Of a stretch of 64,000 nt of DNA, positions 2,011-48,043 are shown piece by piece (the first letter of the stretch is position 1; each line of letters opens with the position of its first letter). A model generated the notes under the pieces. That model made no database searches. It saw only the letters and a list, made by a program, of their open reading frames with translations, and was not told where the DNA came from. The DNA is from an uncultured Muribaculaceae bacterium (GTDB lineage Bacteria > Bacillota_I > Bacilli_A > RF39 > UBA660). The DNA is taken from the NCBI GenBank assembly GCA_964371025.1, contig CAYJKH010000002.1:58929-122928 (forward strand), in the 5' to 3' direction. Both the position numbers and the translations under genes were made by a program.

Positions 2011-4409
2011 GTGAATACAGTAAAATAGAGAAGAAATGGCAAAAATATTGGGAAGATAATAAGAGATTTATTACAAGTAATGATAGTGATAAAGAAAAAT
2101 ATTATTATTTAGTAGAGTTCCCTTATCCATCTGGAGATGGACTTCATGTAGGACATGTAAGAAGTTATACAGCACTTGATGCACTAGCACGTAAAAAAAG
2201 AATGAATAACTTTAATGTATTATTTCCAATTGGATGGGATGCCTTTGGAGCACCAGCAGAAGAGCACGCCATAAAAACTAAACAACATCCGAAAGTAGCA
2301 ATCAAAAAGAATATAGATACATATAGAAGTCAAATGAAAAACTTAGGGATTTCATTTGATTGGTCTAGAGAATTTTCAACAACAGATGAGAATATTTATA
2401 AGTGGACACAGTGGCAATTTTTGAAATTTTTTGAAAATGACTTAGCATACAAAGCAAAGAAAAATATAAATTGGTGTGAAAAGTGTAAAACTGGATTATC
2501 TAATGAAGATTCATCTGGAGGAGTTTGTGAAAGATGTGGAAGTCCAGTTATTCAAAAAGAAAAAGAACAATGGATATTAAAAATGAGTGATTATGCGGAA
2601 GACTTATTAACGGGATTAGATGATACTAATTATCAAAGTAAAATTAAAACTGCTCAAATTAATTGGATAGGTAAATCAGTAGGGGCTAATGTTAATTTCA
2701 AATTAAAAGAACAAGATGAAATATTGGAAGTATATACAACAAGACCAGATACTTTATTTGGAGCAACTTTTATGGTAATTGCTCCAGAACATCCTATATT
2801 AGAAAAATATAAAGATTCAATTAAAAATATTTCTGAGATAAAAGATTACCAAAAAGAAACTATTAAGAAAAGTAGTTTTGAAAGAAGTGAATTAATAAAA
2901 GAAAAAACTGGAGTTAAAATTGATGGTATATCAGCTATAAACCCTCTAAGTAATAAAGTGATTCCAGTATATATTGCAGATTATGTAATGATGGGATATG
3001 GTACGGGAGCAATAATGGCAGTACCTGCTCATGATCAAAGAGATTATGATTTTGCAAAGAAATTTAATATTGAAATTATCCCGGTTATTGAAGGTGGAAA
3101 CATTGAGAAAGAAGCATATGCTAATGATGGAGTAATGATTAATTCAGAATTTTTAAATGGGATTACTACTAAAGAAGAAGCAATTGCGAAAGTTATTAAA
3201 TACTTAAATGAAGAAAAACTTGGAGAAGCTAAAACTAATTATAAATTACAAGATTGGATTTTTTCTAGACAAAGATTTTGGGGAGAACCAATTCCTATAA
3301 TTAATTGTGATTGCTGTGGATATGTTCCAGTACCAGAAAAAGATCTACCTGTTGTTCTGCCAGATGTTGCAAAATATGAACCGACTGAAAATGGTGAGTC
3401 CCCACTAGCAGGAATAGAAGAGTGGGTAAATACAACTTGTCCTAAATGTGGCAAAAAAGCAAAAAGAGAAACTGATACAATGCCGAACTGGGCAGGTTCT
3501 AGTTGGTATTGGTTAAGATATATGGATCCTAAAAATGATCAAGAGTTTGTATCTAAAGAAGCTTTAAAACAGTGGGGTAAAGTAGAATTTTATAATGGTG
3601 GAATGGAACATGCTACTAGACACTTATTATATGCAAGATTCTGGAATCAAGCACTTTATAACTTAGGGCTTGTACCTAATAAAGAACCATTTGATACAAG
3701 AGTAGCTCATGGATTAATCTTAGCAAGTGATGGTGAAAAAATGTCTAAATCACGTGGTAATGTAGTTAATCCAGATCACATGGTAGCAGAATATGGAGCA
3801 GATACTTTAAGATGCTATCAAATGTTTATGGGAGATTATGAAAAAGAAGTAACATGGAATGAGTTAGGACTTAAAGGAGTTAAAAGATTCTTAGACAGAG
3901 TAATTAAATTAAGTGAAAAATTAAATGAAAAGAATAATTATTCGGAAGAATTAGAAAAATCTATTCATAAGACAATAAAAAAAGTAACAGAAGATTATGA
4001 TAATATGAAATTTAATACTGTGGTATCATCATTAATGATATTATTAAATGAATATGATAAACAAAAATCAATTACTAAAGAAGACTATAGAACACTATTA
4101 TTATTATTAAATCCAATTGCTCCTCATATTAGTGAAGAATTAAATGAATTTAATAACTTAGGAGCAGAATTATTTATTAGTAAATGGCCTGTATATGATG
4201 AGATAAAAACTATAGATGAAGAAAAAACTATAGCAGTACAAGTTAATGGTAAAATGCGTGCTACTATTACGATAAACTTAAATGACACAGAAGATATGAT
4301 AAAAGAAAAAGCCTTAAAAGAAGAAAATATTAAAGTTCATACTGAAGGTAAAGAAATTATAAAATTTATTGTAATTAAAGGAAAAATTGCCAATATAGTA
4401 GTTAAATAA
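2007..4409 (+). CDS. leuS: leucyl-tRNA synthetase
   Basis: N-terminus EKKWQKYWEDNKRF, HIGH motif HVGHVRSY, KMSKS motif, 800 aa. Confidence 0.97.
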   Translation: MSEYSKIEKKWQKYWEDNKRFITSNDSDKEKYYYLVEFPYPSGDGLHVGHVRSYTALDALARKKRMNNFNVLFPIGWDAFGAPAEEHAIKTKQHPKVAIKKNIDTYRSQMKNLGISFDWSREFSTTDENIYKWTQWQFLKFFENDLAYKAKKNINWCEKCKTGLSNEDSSGGVCERCGSPVIQKEKEQWILKMSDYAEDLLTGLDDTNYQSKIKTAQINWIGKSVGANVNFKLKEQDEILEVYTTRPDTLFGATFMVIAPEHPILEKYKDSIKNISEIKDYQKETIKKSSFERSELIKEKTGVKIDGISAINPLSNKVIPVYIADYVMMGYGTGAIMAVPAHDQRDYDFAKKFNIEIIPVIEGGNIEKEAYANDGVMINSEFLNGITTKEEAIAKVIKYLNEEKLGEAKTNYKLQDWIFSRQRFWGEPIPIINCDCCGYVPVPEKDLPVVLPDVAKYEPTENGESPLAGIEEWVNTTCPKCGKKAKRETDTMPNWAGSSWYWLRYMDPKNDQEFVSKEALKQWGKVEFYNGGMEHATRHLLYARFWNQALYNLGLVPNKEPFDTRVAHGLILASDGEKMSKSRGNVVNPDHMVAEYGADTLRCYQMFMGDYEKEVTWNELGLKGVKRFLDRVIKLSEKLNEKNNYSEELEKSIHKTIKKVTEDYDNMKFNTVVSSLMILLNEYDKQKSITKEDYRTLLLLLNPIAPHISEELNEFNNLGAELFISKWPVYDEIKTIDEEKTIAVQVNGKMRATITINLNDTEDMIKEKALKEENIKVHTEGKEIIKFIVIKGKIANIVVK

Positions 4410-13073: not shown

Positions 13074-13240
13074 TTCAGAGACTTAGTGGTTGGTGAAAAC
13101 TAAGTAATTATTTACATATGAATTACATTATTAAGAGAAAATCGTTAACTGCGTTAAAGTTTTAAGATAAGTAAATTACTTATGAATTAAGGTGGTACCA
13201 CGAATTATTCGTCCTTATAGGATGGGTAATTTTTTTATTA
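13074..13240 (+). promoter_or_regulatory. T-box riboswitch leader (tyrosine specifier UAC candidate) upstream of tyrS
   Basis: T-box core AAGGTGGTACCACGAAT at 13188-13204, followed by a terminator hairpin and T run. UUUACAU present in the candidate specifier region. Confidence 0.75.
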
Positions 13241-13252
13241 GGAGGAGATTAT

Positions 13253-14488
13253 ATGAAATTTTTTGATGAATTAAAATGGAGAGGGTTAGTAAAAGATTGT
13301 GCAGGAAGTGATCTTGAAAGTAAAATAAATGATGAGAAAATAACTTTTTATTGGGGAACAGACCCAACAGCAGATAGCTTACATTTAGGACATTACTCAT
13401 CACTTTTAACTGCTATGAGACTAGCGAAGCATGGACATAATCCAATTTTATTATGTGGAGGAGCTACAGGTTTAATTGGAGATCCAAGACCAACTGAAGA
13501 AAGAGAAATCTTAACAAAAGAAGAATTAAATCATAATTTAGAATCAATAAAAAAACAAGTTACTAATATATTTAAAGGATTAGATGTAGAAGTTGTTAAT
13601 AATTACGATTGGTTTAAAGGATATGAATTTACAGAAGTATTAAGAGATGTTGGTAAATATATAAATGTTAATTATATGTTAGATAAAGATATTATAAAAA
13701 GAAGATTATCTACAGGTATTACTTTTGCAGAATTTGCTTATACATTAATTCAAGGGTATGATTTTTTACATTTATATGAAAAGAAAAACTGTATTATGCA
13801 AGTGGAAGGTTCTGATCAATGGGGAAACATTACAACTGGATTGGAATTAATTAGAAAAAAACTTAATAAAGAAGCATATGCATTTACAATGCCACTTGTT
13901 TTAGATAATAACGGAGTTAAATTTGGAAAATCATTAGGTAATGCTTTATGGTTAGATATAAATAAAACATCAACTTATGAAATGTATCAATATTTAATTA
14001 ATTCAGATGATTCTAAAGTTATTGATTATGTGAAAATATTTACATTCTTATCTGTTGATGAAATATTAGAATTAGAAAAAGAACATTTAGAAAAACCTGA
14101 ATTAAGAAAAGCGCAAAAAGTTTTAGCAGAAAGTATAATTGTTGGACTACATGGTCAAGAAAAATATAATGAAGCAGTAAAAATAAGTGAAACTTTATTT
14201 AATGGAAATTTTAAAGAACTAACTGATGAAGAATTAGAAATAGCAATTAAGGGTATGAATATTCATGAATTAAAAGATGCTAAAAGTATTGTAGATGTTT
14301 TAACTGAATTTAATATATGTAGTAGCAAAAGAGAAGCTCGAGAATTTATTAATAATTCATCTATTACTATTAATGGTGATAAAGTTACCTCACTTGATTT
14401 AGAAATTAACAAAGAATTAACTTTAAATAATAAGTATGTTATTATTAGACGTGGTAAAAAAAGATATTATATAATTACTTTTAATTAA
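13253..14488 (+). CDS. tyrS: tyrosyl-tRNA synthetase
   Basis: HIGH motif SLHLGHY, KFGKS (KMSKS) motif, C-terminal S4 domain. Confidence 0.95.
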   Translation: MKFFDELKWRGLVKDCAGSDLESKINDEKITFYWGTDPTADSLHLGHYSSLLTAMRLAKHGHNPILLCGGATGLIGDPRPTEEREILTKEELNHNLESIKKQVTNIFKGLDVEVVNNYDWFKGYEFTEVLRDVGKYINVNYMLDKDIIKRRLSTGITFAEFAYTLIQGYDFLHLYEKKNCIMQVEGSDQWGNITTGLELIRKKLNKEAYAFTMPLVLDNNGVKFGKSLGNALWLDINKTSTYEMYQYLINSDDSKVIDYVKIFTFLSVDEILELEKEHLEKPELRKAQKVLAESIIVGLHGQEKYNEAVKISETLFNGNFKELTDEELEIAIKGMNIHELKDAKSIVDVLTEFNICSSKREAREFINNSSITINGDKVTSLDLEINKELTLNNKYVIIRRGKKRYYIITFN

Positions 14489-14546
14489 TATTTTACATTT
14501 AAAAAATATAGTGTATAATTATTATTATAAGATAGGGTGATTAAAT

Positions 14547-15194
14547 GTGAAAAAGTTTATTAACTTAAAATTTATTATTGTTATGACTTTAACATTATTA
14601 ATATGTTTAATTGGAGGAACATATGCTTTTGCCAGTATAGATATATTTGCTCCTAATAAGAATGTGATAGTTTCTGGAAATGTTAATATAGAGGTAGTTG
14701 AATCAGGAGACTTTCTTAAAGAAGATTTATTACCAGGAGAAGAAACTACTAGTTCAATTTATAATGTAGATATAAAAAACACTGGGAGTGTTGATATAAA
14801 GTTAGATTTAAAACTATTACAAAAAAATGCTGAGTTATATATTCCAAAGGAACAAGTTATATATAAGTTAGAGTATATAACATATCCTACAGCTAATAAT
14901 CCTTTTGATAACCCAGACTATAATCCCGTATTTCAAGTTACATCAGGTAACTTAGGAACGGTTTATAACAGTAACTATGTTAGTCCAGAAGGAAAAACAT
15001 CATTATTACAAGATAGTGATGGGACTAATTTTAATGCATATTATAGTGTTTTAGATAATACTATTTTGAAAAAAAATGAAACAATGAGAGTTCAACTAAA
15101 TTTTACATATGATTTATCAACTACAGTAGAGGATGTTCAAAATGTTACTGATGAATTTGCTGTGAAAATGTTGGTGGATGCAAGTAATATATAG
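14547..15194 (+). CDS. TasA/camelysin-family secreted protein with SipW-cognate type signal peptide
   Basis: GTG start. Signal ...LIGGTYAFASIDIF then beta-rich body, resembling the TasA/CalY N-terminal GGTFAFF signature. Confidence 0.6.
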   Translation: MKKFINLKFIIVMTLTLLICLIGGTYAFASIDIFAPNKNVIVSGNVNIEVVESGDFLKEDLLPGEETTSSIYNVDIKNTGSVDIKLDLKLLQKNAELYIPKEQVIYKLEYITYPTANNPFDNPDYNPVFQVTSGNLGTVYNSNYVSPEGKTSLLQDSDGTNFNAYYSVLDNTILKKNETMRVQLNFTYDLSTTVEDVQNVTDEFAVKMLVDASNI

Positions 15195-15269
15195 TGTATA
15201 AGAGAAAGATTTTCTTTCTTTTTTTTACGAAGTAAATAATTTATGATAAAATATATATAGGAGAGTGAT

Positions 15270-16496
15270 TTGGTGACAGATAAACAAAAAAAAGTAGTAA
15301 AATTTATAATAATAGGATTATCTATTATTTTAGTAATAAATATAGGAATATTAATATATTTATATTTCTTTAAAAATAATAATGAAAATATAATTGATGG
15401 AATTAACTCCATTGTATATGAAGACAATAAATATATATCAGCGGGAAGTAGTAATTTAAATGATGAAGGTTATGAAAAAGCTAAAATTTCTATGTATGAT
15501 AAAGATAGGGAAAAAGAATGGGAAAAGGTATTTACAACAGGAATAAATAGTACTTTTTATGATGTCATTGTTGATGATACTGGTATTATAGCAGTAGGTA
15601 GTTATGAAGAAAGTGAAGAAGACTTAGAAGATAATTTAAGAAGTGGTTTACTAGTTAAGTATGATAGTGATGGCAATTTATTATTTAATAAAACTTTTCA
15701 AATTTTAGGTAATTCTAAATTAACAAAAATTATAAGTATAAATGATGGTTATTTAGTTACTGGTCAAAGTATTTATGAAAATTCAACTTTAGGACTATCA
15801 ACAGATGGAGGAGCATTTTTATTAAAATATAGTAAAGATGGAGATTTATTATGGCAAACTAATTACGGTGGTAGTAAGTCAGGAGTATTTAATGACTTAG
15901 TTGTTTATAAAAATCATATATATGTAGTAGGAAAAGATTATTCAAGAGTTGGAATAATTGCTAAGTATACAATGGAAGGAAAACAAGTAAAAGTTGAAGA
16001 ATATAATTTTACAGATACAATTGGATTTACTGCTATTAAAGAATTAGATGGTGACTTAGTAGTAGCAGGAGCTAAAAAAGTAGTAGAAGATGAAAATGAT
16101 TATGATACTGATGGGTTATTATTAAAATATGATACTAACTTAAAAAAGCTTGAAGAGAAAGTTTATCGAGGAAAAGGGATTGAAAGATTCAACCAATTAG
16201 AAATAGATCAAGATAATAATATTGTGGTTATTGGAACAACGGGTATTTATAATAAAAAAGAATCAAATGATTCATATAATGTATTTAATTATAATGGAAT
16301 AATAGCTAAATATGAAGATGATTTTGATGATATAAAAGTAGAAGAATATAGTCATGAAAAAAACAATCACTTTACTGATATAGTGATTGTTAAAGATAAT
16401 TATATAGTAACAGGATATTCAGAGATTAATGATGAAGAGTACTTATCAAAAATAATCGAATATTCTTCTGCTTTAAAAATATTAGAGTCAAAATAA
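15270..16496 (+). CDS. membrane-anchored SBBP beta-propeller repeat protein
   Basis: N-terminal TM. Five to six repeats of about 50 aa, e.g. LLVKYDSDGNLLFNKTF / FLLKYSKDGDLLWQTNYGG / IIAKYTMEGK. Confidence 0.6.
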   Translation: MVTDKQKKVVKFIIIGLSIILVINIGILIYLYFFKNNNENIIDGINSIVYEDNKYISAGSSNLNDEGYEKAKISMYDKDREKEWEKVFTTGINSTFYDVIVDDTGIIAVGSYEESEEDLEDNLRSGLLVKYDSDGNLLFNKTFQILGNSKLTKIISINDGYLVTGQSIYENSTLGLSTDGGAFLLKYSKDGDLLWQTNYGGSKSGVFNDLVVYKNHIYVVGKDYSRVGIIAKYTMEGKQVKVEEYNFTDTIGFTAIKELDGDLVVAGAKKVVEDENDYDTDGLLLKYDTNLKKLEEKVYRGKGIERFNQLEIDQDNNIVVIGTTGIYNKKESNDSYNVFNYNGIIAKYEDDFDDIKVEEYSHEKNNHFTDIVIVKDNYIVTGYSEINDEEYLSKIIEYSSALKILESK

Positions 16497-16526
16497 AAGT
16501 ATACATAAAAATGTATACTTTTTTAA
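16497..16526. terminator. bidirectional terminator between convergent genes
   Basis: AAGTATACAT-aaaa-ATGTATACTT palindrome with flanking T/A runs. Confidence 0.7.
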
Positions 16527-16540
16527 TAATAGTTTATTTA

Positions 16541-31329: not shown

Positions 31330-31659
31330 ATGTATCAAAATAAAATAAATTTAATGCCACAAGATATTTTAGAAAAAGAATTTAAAATTGATACTCGTGG
31401 ATACAGATTAAAAGAAGTTGATCTATTTTTGGATACTGTTATTTCTGATTATGAACAGTTTTTGAATATGATAAATAATCTTGAAAAAGAAAAGGCTGAT
31501 TTACTTGGTGAGATTATGAAATTAAAACAAGAATTAAGAAATAATAGAATTAATGTAGAAGCAGCAAGAAGTAATGAAATGAATGAGGTTTCTAACGTTG
31601 ATATTTTAAGAAGAATATCACAATTAGAAAAATTAGTATACGGTGATAGAAATAATTAA
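31330..31659 (+). CDS. gpsB: cell-cycle protein GpsB (DivIVA domain)
   Basis: N-terminus MPQDILEKEFKIDTRGYRLKEVDLFLD. Adjacent rnpB as in Bacillus. Confidence 0.8.
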   Translation: MYQNKINLMPQDILEKEFKIDTRGYRLKEVDLFLDTVISDYEQFLNMINNLEKEKADLLGEIMKLKQELRNNRINVEAARSNEMNEVSNVDILRRISQLEKLVYGDRNN

Positions 31660-31663
31660 TATA

Positions 31664-32008
31664 TAGATAAACGCTGGTATTTTAAAATGCTTGAGGAAAG
31701 TCCATGCTCTCACAAACTGAGATGTTTGTAGTGTTCATGTATAGGGAAAAAATAACCTATAGTAGAGAAATCTAACGGAGGTAGTTAAGTCTAAGTCTTT
31801 GATATGATTTAATCCATAAAAGTGCCGCAGTGACGATAACTTTGGAAACGAAGGTGTGAAACGAGGTAAACCCCATGAGAGAGAAACCCAAATTTGGTAG
31901 GGGAATTCTAACGAAGGAATTAAACGGAGTTAGGAACTGTTTGTATATATACAAATGGTAGATAAATGTTTATCGCCTAGAAATAGGAACAGAACATGGC
32001 TTATTTAT
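31664..32008 (+). ncRNA. rnpB: RNase P RNA, bacterial type B
   Basis: GAGGAAAGTCCATGCTC, AGTGCCGCAGTGACG, GGTAAACCCCATGAGAGAGAAACCCAAATTTGGTAGGGGAA and ACAGAACATGGCTTA conserved blocks. Ends approximate. Confidence 0.85.
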
Positions 32009-44184: not shown

Positions 44185-44271
44185 GCCTGTGTGGTGGAAT
44201 TGGTAGACACGTTGGACTCAAAATCCAATGGTAGAAATATCATGTCGGTTCAAGTCCGACCACAGGTACCA
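44185..44271 (+). tRNA. tRNA-Leu (anticodon CAA), CCA encoded
   Basis: 87 nt. Acceptor GCCTGTG/CACAGGT. Anticodon loop CUCAAAA. Long variable arm. T-loop GGTTCAAGTCC. Confidence 0.9.
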
Positions 44272-46204: not shown

Positions 46205-47221
46205 ATGGATAAATTTGATTTAAACTGGTTTACCTCAATACCAGGATTATTAATAACAGGGGGAGTTTTATTATTACTAATAGCAATTATTATGTTAATA
46301 GTAACAGGTAAAAAGTCTAAAAAGAAAACGGATGTTCAAACTCAGTCTACTCAAGAAGCACAACAATTAGCAGTAAATACTGCTGTGCCAATGGAGACAC
46401 AAGTTATGGATCCTATTCAACCAGGGCCAGTTGAACCAATTTCACAACCGATGATGAATGAAACTCCAGCAATTCCGGTAACACCTGAGCCGGCAGTGCA
46501 ACCAATGATGAATGAAATTCTAGCAATTCCAGTAACACCTGAGCCAGCAGTACAACCAATAATGAATGAAGTTCCTGCAGTTCCAATGGAGCCAGTGGCA
46601 CCGATGATGAATGAAATACCTATAGCAGCAATGCCTGCAGTAGAGCCAGTGGTTGCTATGCCAGAAGTAGTAATGCCTGTAGCAGAACCAGTAGTTGCTA
46701 TGCCAGAAGTAGCGATGCCTGTAGCAGAACCAGTAGTTGCTATGCCAGAAGTAGCAATGCCTGTAGCAGAACCAGTAGTTGCTATGCCAGAAGTAGCAAT
46801 GCCTGCAGTAGAACCAGTAGTTGCTATGCCAGAAGTAGCGATGCCTGCAGTAGAACCGGTAGTTGCTATGCCTGCAGTAGAACCAGCTCCAGTATCAATT
46901 TATGGTGGAGAATCTCCTATTATACCTAATATTAATATGAATACAGCACCTGCTAACCCAATATATGGGGGAGCAGATCCTTTAGAAAATACACAAACAG
47001 CATTAACTGCAATTGCACCAGCAATTGAACCAACACCAGTAGTTGAAACTACTCCAGTTATTGAACCAACTATAGCTCCAATGCCTCAAACAGTAATGCC
47101 AGCAGTTGCTCCAGTAGTTCAACCAATGCCAGTTATGCCTGGAGTTCAACAACCAATTCCACAGCCTGTACAACAACCAGTACAACCACAAGTTAGTGCA
47201 CAAAATATTGAAACAATGTAA
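46205..47221 (+). CDS. single-pass membrane protein with long Pro/Val/Ala/Met/Glu-rich tandem repeats
   Basis: N-terminal TM LLITGGVLLLLIAIIMLIV. Three 19-aa repeats QPMMNE.PAIPVTPEPAV, then five to six 14-aa repeats VAEPVVAMPEVAMP. Two PIYGG motifs. Confidence 0.55.
   Translation: MDKFDLNWFTSIPGLLITGGVLLLLIAIIMLIVTGKKSKKKTDVQTQSTQEAQQLAVNTAVPMETQVMDPIQPGPVEPISQPMMNETPAIPVTPEPAVQPMMNEILAIPVTPEPAVQPIMNEVPAVPMEPVAPMMNEIPIAAMPAVEPVVAMPEVVMPVAEPVVAMPEVAMPVAEPVVAMPEVAMPVAEPVVAMPEVAMPAVEPVVAMPEVAMPAVEPVVAMPAVEPAPVSIYGGESPIIPNINMNTAPANPIYGGADPLENTQTALTAIAPAIEPTPVVETTPVIEPTIAPMPQTVMPAVAPVVQPMPVMPGVQQPIPQPVQQPVQPQVSAQNIETM
46443..46613 (+). repeat. about three copies of a 57-bp tandem repeat inside the CDS
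   Basis: caaccRatgatgaatgaaaYtcYagcaattccRgtaacacctgagccRgcagtR reiterated. Confidence 0.6.
46633..46890 (+). repeat. five to six copies of a 42-bp tandem repeat inside the CDS
   Basis: gcctgYagYagaRccagtRgttgctatgccagaagtagYRat near-identical units. Confidence 0.7.
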
Positions 47222-47242: not shown

Positions 47243-48043
47243 ATGAAGGGTTTACTAAGATTTATAATAAATACATGTTTGGCATTAATTATCGTATCAG
47301 CTATATTTTCTACTTTCTTATTCTTTAATACAGATGAAGATGGAGTTATTAGTATAAATGATACAAGTTTAATTCCAATAACAAATAGTGATTTAAGTCC
47401 TACCGTAGAAGAGATGGATTTAATATTTGTTAAAGCAATTACTAATTATGATGATATTGCAAAAAATGATGTTATTTCATATAAGAAAATAACAAATGAA
47501 AAAATGACAATTGAAACTAAAAGAGTATATTTAATTAATAAGACAGATGATGGATATACTTTTATTACAAAAACAGATACTGGTAATGTAGCTAATCAAG
47601 ATACAGTTAAAGCAAGTGATATTATTGGTAAATGGAATAACCAAAAAGTACTATTTGTAGGAGCTTATTTTGAATTTATTACTTCTATTATTGGATTTAT
47701 AGCAGTTGTTATAATACCTTTAACAGTATTAGTGATATTATTAATTGCTACTATTATTCAAAAACAAAAAAAGGTAGTAAAAGAAGCTGAAGAAGATAAT
47801 ATATCAGTAGAAACTAATCACTATGAGCATACTCAAGTATTAGGTAAAATTACAGAAGATAATATTATGGATTATGATAAAAAGAAATTAGAAGTAGAAA
47901 ATTCTGAAGTTGCTAAGGGAGTAAAAGAAGAAAAACCAACAATTCAAGAAGAAGTAGATAATGTAGAGCAAATCTTAAACAAAGAAGCTACTGCAGAAGA
48001 AACTAAAGAAGTAAAAAAAGAAGAGGATATTGAAGTTTTATAA
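47243..48043 (+). CDS. SipW/ER-type (S26B) signal-peptidase-like membrane protein with divergent catalytic motif and acidic C-terminal tail
   Basis: N-terminal TM, region LIPITNSDLSPTVEEMDLIFVK resembling the SGSMEPT..GD..V box, second TM near residue 150. Catalytic Ser/His assignment uncertain. Confidence 0.4.
   Translation: MKGLLRFIINTCLALIIVSAIFSTFLFFNTDEDGVISINDTSLIPITNSDLSPTVEEMDLIFVKAITNYDDIAKNDVISYKKITNEKMTIETKRVYLINKTDDGYTFITKTDTGNVANQDTVKASDIIGKWNNQKVLFVGAYFEFITSIIGFIAVVIIPLTVLVILLIATIIQKQKKVVKEAEEDNISVETNHYEHTQVLGKITEDNIMDYDKKKLEVENSEVAKGVKEEKPTIQEEVDNVEQILNKEATAEETKEVKKEEDIEVL

Follow-up and report, generated by a model that had tools for sequence, protein, structure and literature searches.

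The window analysed here, i.e. the whole 64,000-nucleotide stretch of contig CAYJKH010000002.1, has a G + C content of about 25% and contains housekeeping genes, a class B RNase P RNA and one tRNA-Leu, and its proteins have their homologues in uncultured 'Bacilli bacterium' assemblies obtained from gut samples. At the locus considered in the following, a lipoprotein gene, two open reading frames (ORFs) of 325 and 90 amino acids, ytxH and tyrS (13253-14488) are followed by two genes, termed gene A (14547-15194) and gene B (15270-16496), and further on by rpsD on the minus strand, thiI and ackA. A first-pass annotation had described gene A as coding for a TasA/camelysin-like protein and had combined it with the membrane-anchored propeller protein encoded by gene B into a putative fibre or biofilm-matrix module with unconventional processing; the only SipW-like signal peptidase homologue in the window is encoded at 47243. 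The coordinates of the main features are given in Table 1.

Both reading frames (215 and 408 amino acids, respectively) as well as the TasA-type N-terminal string of the gene A product are borne out by the ORF calls and by the sequence itself. The codon usage of gene A is native (0.39 in frame as compared to 0.42-0.50 in the neighbouring genes, and -1.4 and -1.7 out of frame) and the chance expectation for ORFs of 215 codons at the composition of the window is only about 3e-5, and gene A must therefore be considered a real gene; together with the expression signals and the homology described below, these statistics rule out a spurious ORF. The product starts with MKKFINLKFIIVMTLTLLICLIGGTYAFASIDIF, and residues 21-34, LIGGTYAFASIDIF, follow a basic n-region and a hydrophobic core of 16 residues. 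A motif of the GGT[YWF]A type occurs only once in the six-frame translation of the window, namely in gene A. There are two candidate signal-peptidase I sites of ordinary type, TYA↓F and AFA↓S, the latter being a textbook Ala-X-Ala site with small residues at positions -3 and -1. As the protein contains no histidine, the term metalloprotease, which is implied by the historical name camelysin, is not applicable to it, and such an activity was ruled out; tryptophan is likewise missing.

With respect to its relatives, gene A forms a singleton cluster among 5.8 billion proteins, and when 1.8 billion representatives were searched exhaustively with phmmer, a single relative was obtained, P0122 (E 8.5e-5). 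A profile search seeded with these two sequences, in turn, led to a family of proteins of 200-220 amino acids, and a hidden Markov model (HMM) of 17 members of this family from which gene A had been left out recovered gene A with 49.9 bits over HMM positions 13-202, i.e. over almost the entire protein. Of the 18 aligned family sequences, ten match the Pfam model Peptidase_M73 (PF12389) at E<=1, and four of them (P0129, P0134, P0135 and P0136) score 23.3-27.6 bits and thus above the gathering score of 22.5 bits, with the match of P0136 spanning profile positions 10-149.

The sequence family closest to gene A, at about 23-33% identity, is the P0122 family of about 208 amino acids from uncultured gut Bacilli. 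Like gene A, its members are solitary genes in a housekeeping neighbourhood; however, they reside at a fixed position 5' of thrS, whereas gene A is located elsewhere, 3' of tyrS. They are also 55-90% identical to each other, in contrast to the far more divergent gene A with its single occurrence. The five genomic loci of this type, located with a sub-alignment of nine sequences (L005 8001-8627; L008 7117-7755; L009 7102-7725; L010 4049-4684; L011 9971-10609), have the order dnaI-like gene, RNase R gene (in some), P0122-type gene, thrS, a tetratricopeptide repeat (TPR) gene, mraZ and rsmH, and no SipW-like ORF was found in the 4-10 kb flanking the P0122-type genes on each side in these five genomes. 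Some members of the P0122 type score only just above the Peptidase_M73 threshold.

A direct comparison of the gene A family with Bacillus subtilis TasA by hhalign gave an E-value of 3.9e-4 over 70 columns, which extend from the last part of the signal peptide through the first strands to the F-x-F-E-N-x-G motif of TasA. The segments paired (family/TasA) are LIGGTYA/VGGGTWA, NVIVSGNVNIEV/ATFASGTLDLSA and IYNVDIKNTGS/DFQFENNGS, and the C-terminal motif of the gene A relatives (…AKIKVVATQ) is similar to that of TasA (…FSFEATQ). Residues 28-261 of the TasA sequence used were verified to be identical to PDB entry 8aur, in which mature TasA begins at Ala28. Both in gene A and in TasA, G-G-T-aromatic-Ala forms the end of the Sec signal, N-x-x-(I/F)-x-S/A-G-x-(L/V)-x-(L/I) comes next, and P-G…(Y/F)-x-(F/V)-x-(I/F)-x-N-x-G follows further on.

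While AlphaFold2 gave an unusable model from the single gene A sequence (predicted local distance difference test (pLDDT) 40.5), the alignment of 18 sequences resulted in an all-beta model (pLDDT 71.8, predicted template modelling score (pTM) 0.66), and in both fold searches with this model the TasA fibre 8aur was found near the top, with many other jelly-roll domains scoring similarly. The TasA-superfamily fibre structures 8aur, 7ueg, 7uii/9hdi and 9h8b occur together among the top fold matches; these include the archaeal bundling pili AbpA (7UEG) and the cannulae CanA/CanX (7UII, 9H8B), which are likewise built from jelly-roll subunits with cleavable signals. With TasA/CalY (PF12389; 5OF1, 8AUR) gene A has in common a length of about 200-260 amino acids, a predicted jelly-roll beta-sandwich and relatives that reach the Pfam threshold. 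In contrast to TasA/CalY, it has no direct HMM match and neither sipW nor tapA as a neighbour, being solitary between tyrS and an unrelated gene, and its C-terminal motif is without the final Thr-Gln, just as the protein is without histidine and tryptophan. Compared to its closest family, the gene A product carries an insertion of 50 residues at about residues 115-165.

A number of results weigh against gene A coding for a processed, secreted protein of the TasA superfamily. Gene A has no match to Peptidase_M73 at E<=1 and none to NF046066, the NCBIfam equivalog of TasA, at E<=10, and neither the full-length protein nor its first 52 residues match TIGR04088, the model of the SipW-cognate signal (34 positions, threshold 19 bits), at E<=10. 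The models are present in the library searched, as the positive control, TasA, reaches 513.8 bits with its own equivalog and 38 bits with TIGR04088; the closest relatives of gene A reach just 8-13 bits with the latter. In addition, the hhalign match to TasA has a probability of just 36%, TasA was not reached by hmmsearch with the gene A family profile against the PDB sequences, the AlphaFold2 model was built on 18 sequences, and no active signal peptidase was seen in the 64-kb window. The HMM comparison with TasA/Peptidase_M73 and TIGR04088 had been named in the first-pass annotation as the test that would decide against its own label, and by this test the label fails. The designation TasA/camelysin-like nevertheless retains the part of its support that comes from transitive homology, the weak profile-profile match and the predicted fold, and based on these sequence comparisons and the structural model gene A probably codes for a very divergent member of the TasA/camelysin superfamily.

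Gene B has 260 homologues (about 406 amino acids, 43-54% identity). Six loci of relatives were fetched (L001-L004, L013 and L014), and in none of them is a gene A present 5' of the gene B homologue; in the five that include tyrS, the homologue follows tyrS after a gap of 68-95 bp. Gene A is thus best explained as a gain in the window: six syntenic loci lack it, and no remnant of it would fit the gaps measured in five. The alternative that gene A belonged to an ancestral block and was lost in the relatives was rejected as less parsimonious. The members of the gene B family in these six loci are normally followed by an overlapping histidine-phosphatase gene (His_Phos_1), which is lacking in the window (15270-16496 and 16497-16540), where gene B abuts rpsD.

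Between the two genes, a terminator-like hairpin folds at -10.1 kcal/mol (z = -2.93 versus shuffled sequences); it had been missed by a consensus terminator scan because of its few G-C pairs. Gene B furthermore has a promoter-like site and a ribosome-binding site of its own, apart from those of gene A, and the combination of hairpin, U run and separate initiation signals points to separate transcription of the two genes. As gene B is conserved beside tyrS without gene A in the relatives examined, gene A is unique to this genome, and transcription is apparently separate, the two genes do not constitute a module; rather, their adjacency is accidental, an orphan gene having landed in a conserved tyrS-propeller block. 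The fibre or biofilm-matrix module of the first-pass annotation is therefore not upheld. An Rfam scan around the gene A/gene B locus found no RNA element.

The search for a processing enzyme covered all frames of the 64-kb window, which is part of a contig of at least 171 kb. In agreement with the first-pass annotation, the only SipW-like ORF in any frame is the one at 47243-48043 (phmmer E 9e-14 against SipW); P-type (SipS-like) signal peptidases are encoded in none of the frames, and up to a distance of 32 kb from gene A, which is flanked by tyrS and gene B, neither a peptidase motif nor a peptidase homologue is present. With 57.5 bits on NCBIfam TIGR02228 (cut-off 51.85; profile positions 6-157 of 158) the 47243 protein lies above the curated threshold and would therefore be annotated as an active signal peptidase I. 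However, an alignment with SipW, human SEC11A and a canonical relative confirms that it is catalytically divergent, since Asp50 takes the position of Ser47 and Lys93 that of His87 of SipW, while the third residue is retained (Asp112 for Asp106). Lysine is the general base of P-type signal peptidases. Residues 1-177 of the 47243 protein are devoid of histidine. As to the sequences aligned, SEC11A was verified to be identical to 7p2p, with the inactive S-to-A mutant 9rjb marking the catalytic serine, and the SipW sequence has a Ser-His-Asp spacing of 40 + 19 residues that agrees with the published Ser47, His87 and Asp106, which are described as essential in a passage of PMC8767453 citing Tjalsma et al. 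(2000).

The 47243 protein resembles SipW and SEC11A (7P2P) in the length of the peptidase domain, in its N- and C-terminal transmembrane segments and in the spacing of the boxes, with 19 residues between the positions of His87 and Asp106. It differs from them in the residues named above, in having TDTG instead of GDNN, in an additional charged cytoplasmic tail of 90 residues at the C-terminus, and in that its gene does not lie beside any TasA-like gene. By canonical criteria the protein is probably inactive, i.e. a pseudo-peptidase, as judged from these substitutions.

Through the neighbouring methyltransferase gene, 80 loci syntenic to the 47243 region could be reached. In four of them (L018 4312-4830; L019 10877-11395; L028 4023-4541; L090 10787-11305) an orthologue of 172 amino acids is present at the same place after the proline-rich membrane protein, and it also lacks both the serine and the histidine, with Ile and Asn instead. 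Two of these loci, L019 (57-3944) and L090 (2160-3945), additionally encode a canonical SipW of 186 amino acids with TGSMQP and THRIV motifs (83.7 bits; GLTN replacing GDNN), directly 5' of a protein of 403 amino acids with a VTLAWFAFSN signal that was matched by no Pfam or NCBIfam model. The coexistence of a canonical SipW and its Ser/His-less paralogue in one relative argues against the 47243 protein being the processing enzyme of TasA-type precursors, and the 47243 protein is not tied to gene A. In L019 the canonical pair adjoins McrBC-like genes, which suggests a variable island, and at the equivalent place the window has the tRNA-Leu (44185-44271) and an ORF of 696 amino acids. Neither a tblastn comparison of the 47243 protein with plasmids nor a metagenome scan gave a match.

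A second type of SipW-like protein without serine and histidine (195 amino acids) was observed in L024 (2980-3567) and L027 (710-1297), beside a convergent gene on the minus strand (3595-4173 and 1330-1899, respectively) for a protein of about 190 amino acids with a TasA-like signal and beta-sandwich motifs (…SLAKYRKQTEG…IAPGTTGYFTLEIDA…). These SipW-like genes are located 5' of lipoprotein and methyltransferase genes, and in L024 a protein of 942 amino acids resembling adhesins is encoded next to the pair as well.

Taken together, the explanation that accounts best for these data, and which we hold with moderate confidence on the basis of sequence and model, is that gene A encodes a lineage-specific, independently transcribed and secreted protein of the TasA superfamily that forms a module neither with gene B nor with the 47243 protein. 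A Sec-type signal peptide (n-region MKKFINLK, hydrophobic core up to Gly24) would direct its export, and the precursor would probably be cleaved by an active signal peptidase of type I whose gene lies beyond the window, with the cut likely after Thr-Tyr-Ala27, at the position that matches the cleavage site of TasA in the alignment, or after Ala-Phe-Ala29. The predicted mature protein would comprise about 186-188 residues folded into a jelly-roll beta-sandwich. By analogy, it may serve as an extracellular or as a cell- or spore-surface structural protein, and it might self-associate via its N-terminal strand in the way of TasA, the fibres of which form by N-terminal strand exchange (PMC9674648). 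The lack of a peptidase gene beside gene A is not unusual, as it is shared by the P0122-type genes and by archaeal AbpA, which has no dedicated signal peptidase gene nearby and is presumed to be cut by a generic enzyme (PMC9245690). Given this precedent, the ordinary signal-peptidase I sites and the missing Ser/His pair in the 47243 group, the earlier suggestion of unconventional processing has no positive evidence in its favour.

If, by contrast, the N-terminal hydrophobic segment of the gene A product remained uncleaved, it would act as a signal anchor, and the beta-sandwich would be tethered outside the membrane as a surface or binding protein instead of being released as a matrix subunit. 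The window, where no active signal peptidase is visible and the sole SipW-like protein is without catalytic residues, would be compatible with such an anchor, as would the bulky residues, Phe in gene A and Trp-Leu in the relatives, behind the TYA site conserved in the family, since according to a passage in PMC10269814 an aromatic residue near the TasA cleavage site hinders the general peptidase LepB. Yet the AFA↓S site and the layout of n-, h- and c-regions in gene A are those usually seen in signals that are cleaved, TasA is in fact cut at the aligned position, and the window in which a peptidase was sought is a minor part of the genome, so that an anchored protein appears unlikely. Less likely still is a generic secreted jelly-roll or carbohydrate-binding-like beta-sandwich without any specific tie to TasA, the N-terminal likeness of which would be due to convergence of signal peptides, because the hhalign match does not end with the signal but also takes in the first core strands and the N-x-G motif, because the likeness of the relatives to TasA extends to the C-terminus and that of P0136 over Peptidase_M73 positions 10-149, and because four separate fibre structures of the TasA superfamily are among the top fold matches.

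In a model along the lines of the first-pass annotation, finally, gene A would provide the fibre subunit and gene B an anchor or assembly factor of a biofilm-matrix module, the precursor being processed unconventionally, perhaps by the 47243 protein. The adjacency of both genes on the same strand and the TasA-type N-terminus of gene A fit this model, and so does the fact that the only SipW-like protein in the window is divergent, with a Lys at the His87 position; moreover, in L024 and L027 a SipW-like gene without serine and histidine does adjoin a gene for a protein with a TasA-like signal. However, the more than 250 gene B homologues, none of them preceded by gene A in the six loci examined, the confinement of gene A to this genome and the hairpin and separate promoter-like site between the genes all speak against it. 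Likewise, the 47243 protein has Asp and not Ser at the position of the nucleophile, is encoded 32 kb away beside a different conserved partner, and has orthologues in L019 and L090 that coexist with a canonical SipW adjoining a substrate-like gene of its own. The model is thus largely refuted by synteny and must be regarded as very improbable.

Gene A does not represent a new system but adds an orphan and highly divergent member to a superfamily that is already known. If it is a functional TasA-superfamily subunit, it would be a very divergent and operon-free example from uncultured gut Bacilli, and the sequence space to be considered in searches for matrix-fibre proteins would be wider; it also illustrates that standard HMMs miss members of this kind. 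As a lesson for annotation, the neighbourhood of genes A and B illustrates that adjacency can be accidental. The most interesting side result are the SipW-like proteins without catalytic Ser and His, one of which exceeds a curated threshold and hence risks being mis-annotated as an active enzyme. A second, non-proteolytic role is known for SipW of B. subtilis. One might speculate, although we consider it improbable, that in this clade of gut Bacilli TasA-superfamily subunits encoded by solitary genes (gene A and the P0122 family linked to thrS) assemble without the operon logic of Bacillus (tapA-sipW-tasA), and that SipW paralogues have been converted there into non-catalytic proteins (with Asp, Ile or Lys for Ser and with Lys, Asn or Thr for His) which act as signal-binding, chaperone or signalling partners of TasA-type precursors or of the proline-rich membrane protein; if true, this function of a pseudo-signal peptidase would extend the non-proteolytic role of B. 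subtilis SipW.

Table 1. Features at the gene A/gene B locus and at the SipW-like locus of the window (positions are those of the 64-kb window)
Feature	Position	Strand	Remarks
Promoter-like site, gene A	14492..14519	+	TTTACA, 16 nt spacer, TATAAT; 11/12 consensus positions, among the best of the region; consensus match only
Ribosome-binding site AGGGTGA, gene A	14534..14540	+	ends 6-7 nt 5' of the GTG start; read from the sequence
Gene A, 215 amino acids, GTG start	14547..15194	+	putative secreted beta-sandwich protein, probable distant member of the TasA/camelysin superfamily
Gene A signal peptide (predicted)	residues 1-27 or 1-29 (14547-14627 or 14547-14633)	+	
Terminator-like hairpin between genes A and B	15200..15226	+	A/U-rich stem (10 bp), loop of 3 nt, then a U run
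Promoter-like site, gene B	15224..15252	+	TTTACG, 17 nt spacer, TAAAAT, TG extension; 9/12 positions; consensus match only
Gene B, 408 amino acids	15270..16496	+	membrane-anchored, seven-repeat beta-propeller ectodomain; conserved, independent of gene A
Alternative start of gene B (GTG)	15273	+	gives the 407-amino-acid NCBI product
Proline-rich repeat membrane protein	46205..47221	+	ORF; kept as 5' neighbour of the SipW-like gene in the relatives that have one
SipW-like (endoplasmic reticulum/archaeal-type signal peptidase I) homologue without catalytic Ser and His	47243..48043	+	TIGR02228 match, alignments

Regarding gene B itself, the N-terminal transmembrane segment of its product is followed by seven repeats of about 50 residues built on (L/I)(L/I)xKY(D/S/T/E), five of them strong and two weaker, at a spacing of 46-61 residues. 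Three stretches of similarity link the family profile to the seven-bladed propeller of CylK (PMC8916777; E 2.4e-8), whereas Pfam SBBP (PF06739) has no match at E<=1 to gene B or to 21 homologues. The description as a membrane-anchored SBBP propeller with five to six repeats is therefore correct as to anchor and propeller, but neither as to the SBBP family nor as to the number of repeats. With the C-terminal propeller of CylK (7RON, 7FH6) gene B shares the repeat pattern …D-A/G-x-L/I-x-K-Y/F-D-x-x-G…, but it has a transmembrane anchor in place of the Ca-binding N-terminal domain, and an enzymatic function is not supported. The gene B family corresponds to no Pfam family, and the comparison of gene B with the Pfam and NCBIfam models yielded nothing relevant.

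The membrane protein encoded 5' of the SipW-like gene contains long proline-rich tandem repeats (…PVAEPVVAMPEVAM…) with a local G + C content of 0.33 as compared to 0.25. Of the syntenic loci, 40 comprise 3 kb or more of sequence on the downstream side, and in 25 of these a homologue of its N-terminal 70 residues is encoded 3' of the methyltransferase gene. Upstream of gene A, a further terminator-like hairpin (13202-13232) lies immediately 5' of the start of tyrS, a position that would be expected for a T-box-type leader; it matches no Rfam family at the gathering score. The class B RNase P RNA of the window (31658-32008, 251.5 bits) fits a host of the Bacillota/Mycoplasmatota type.

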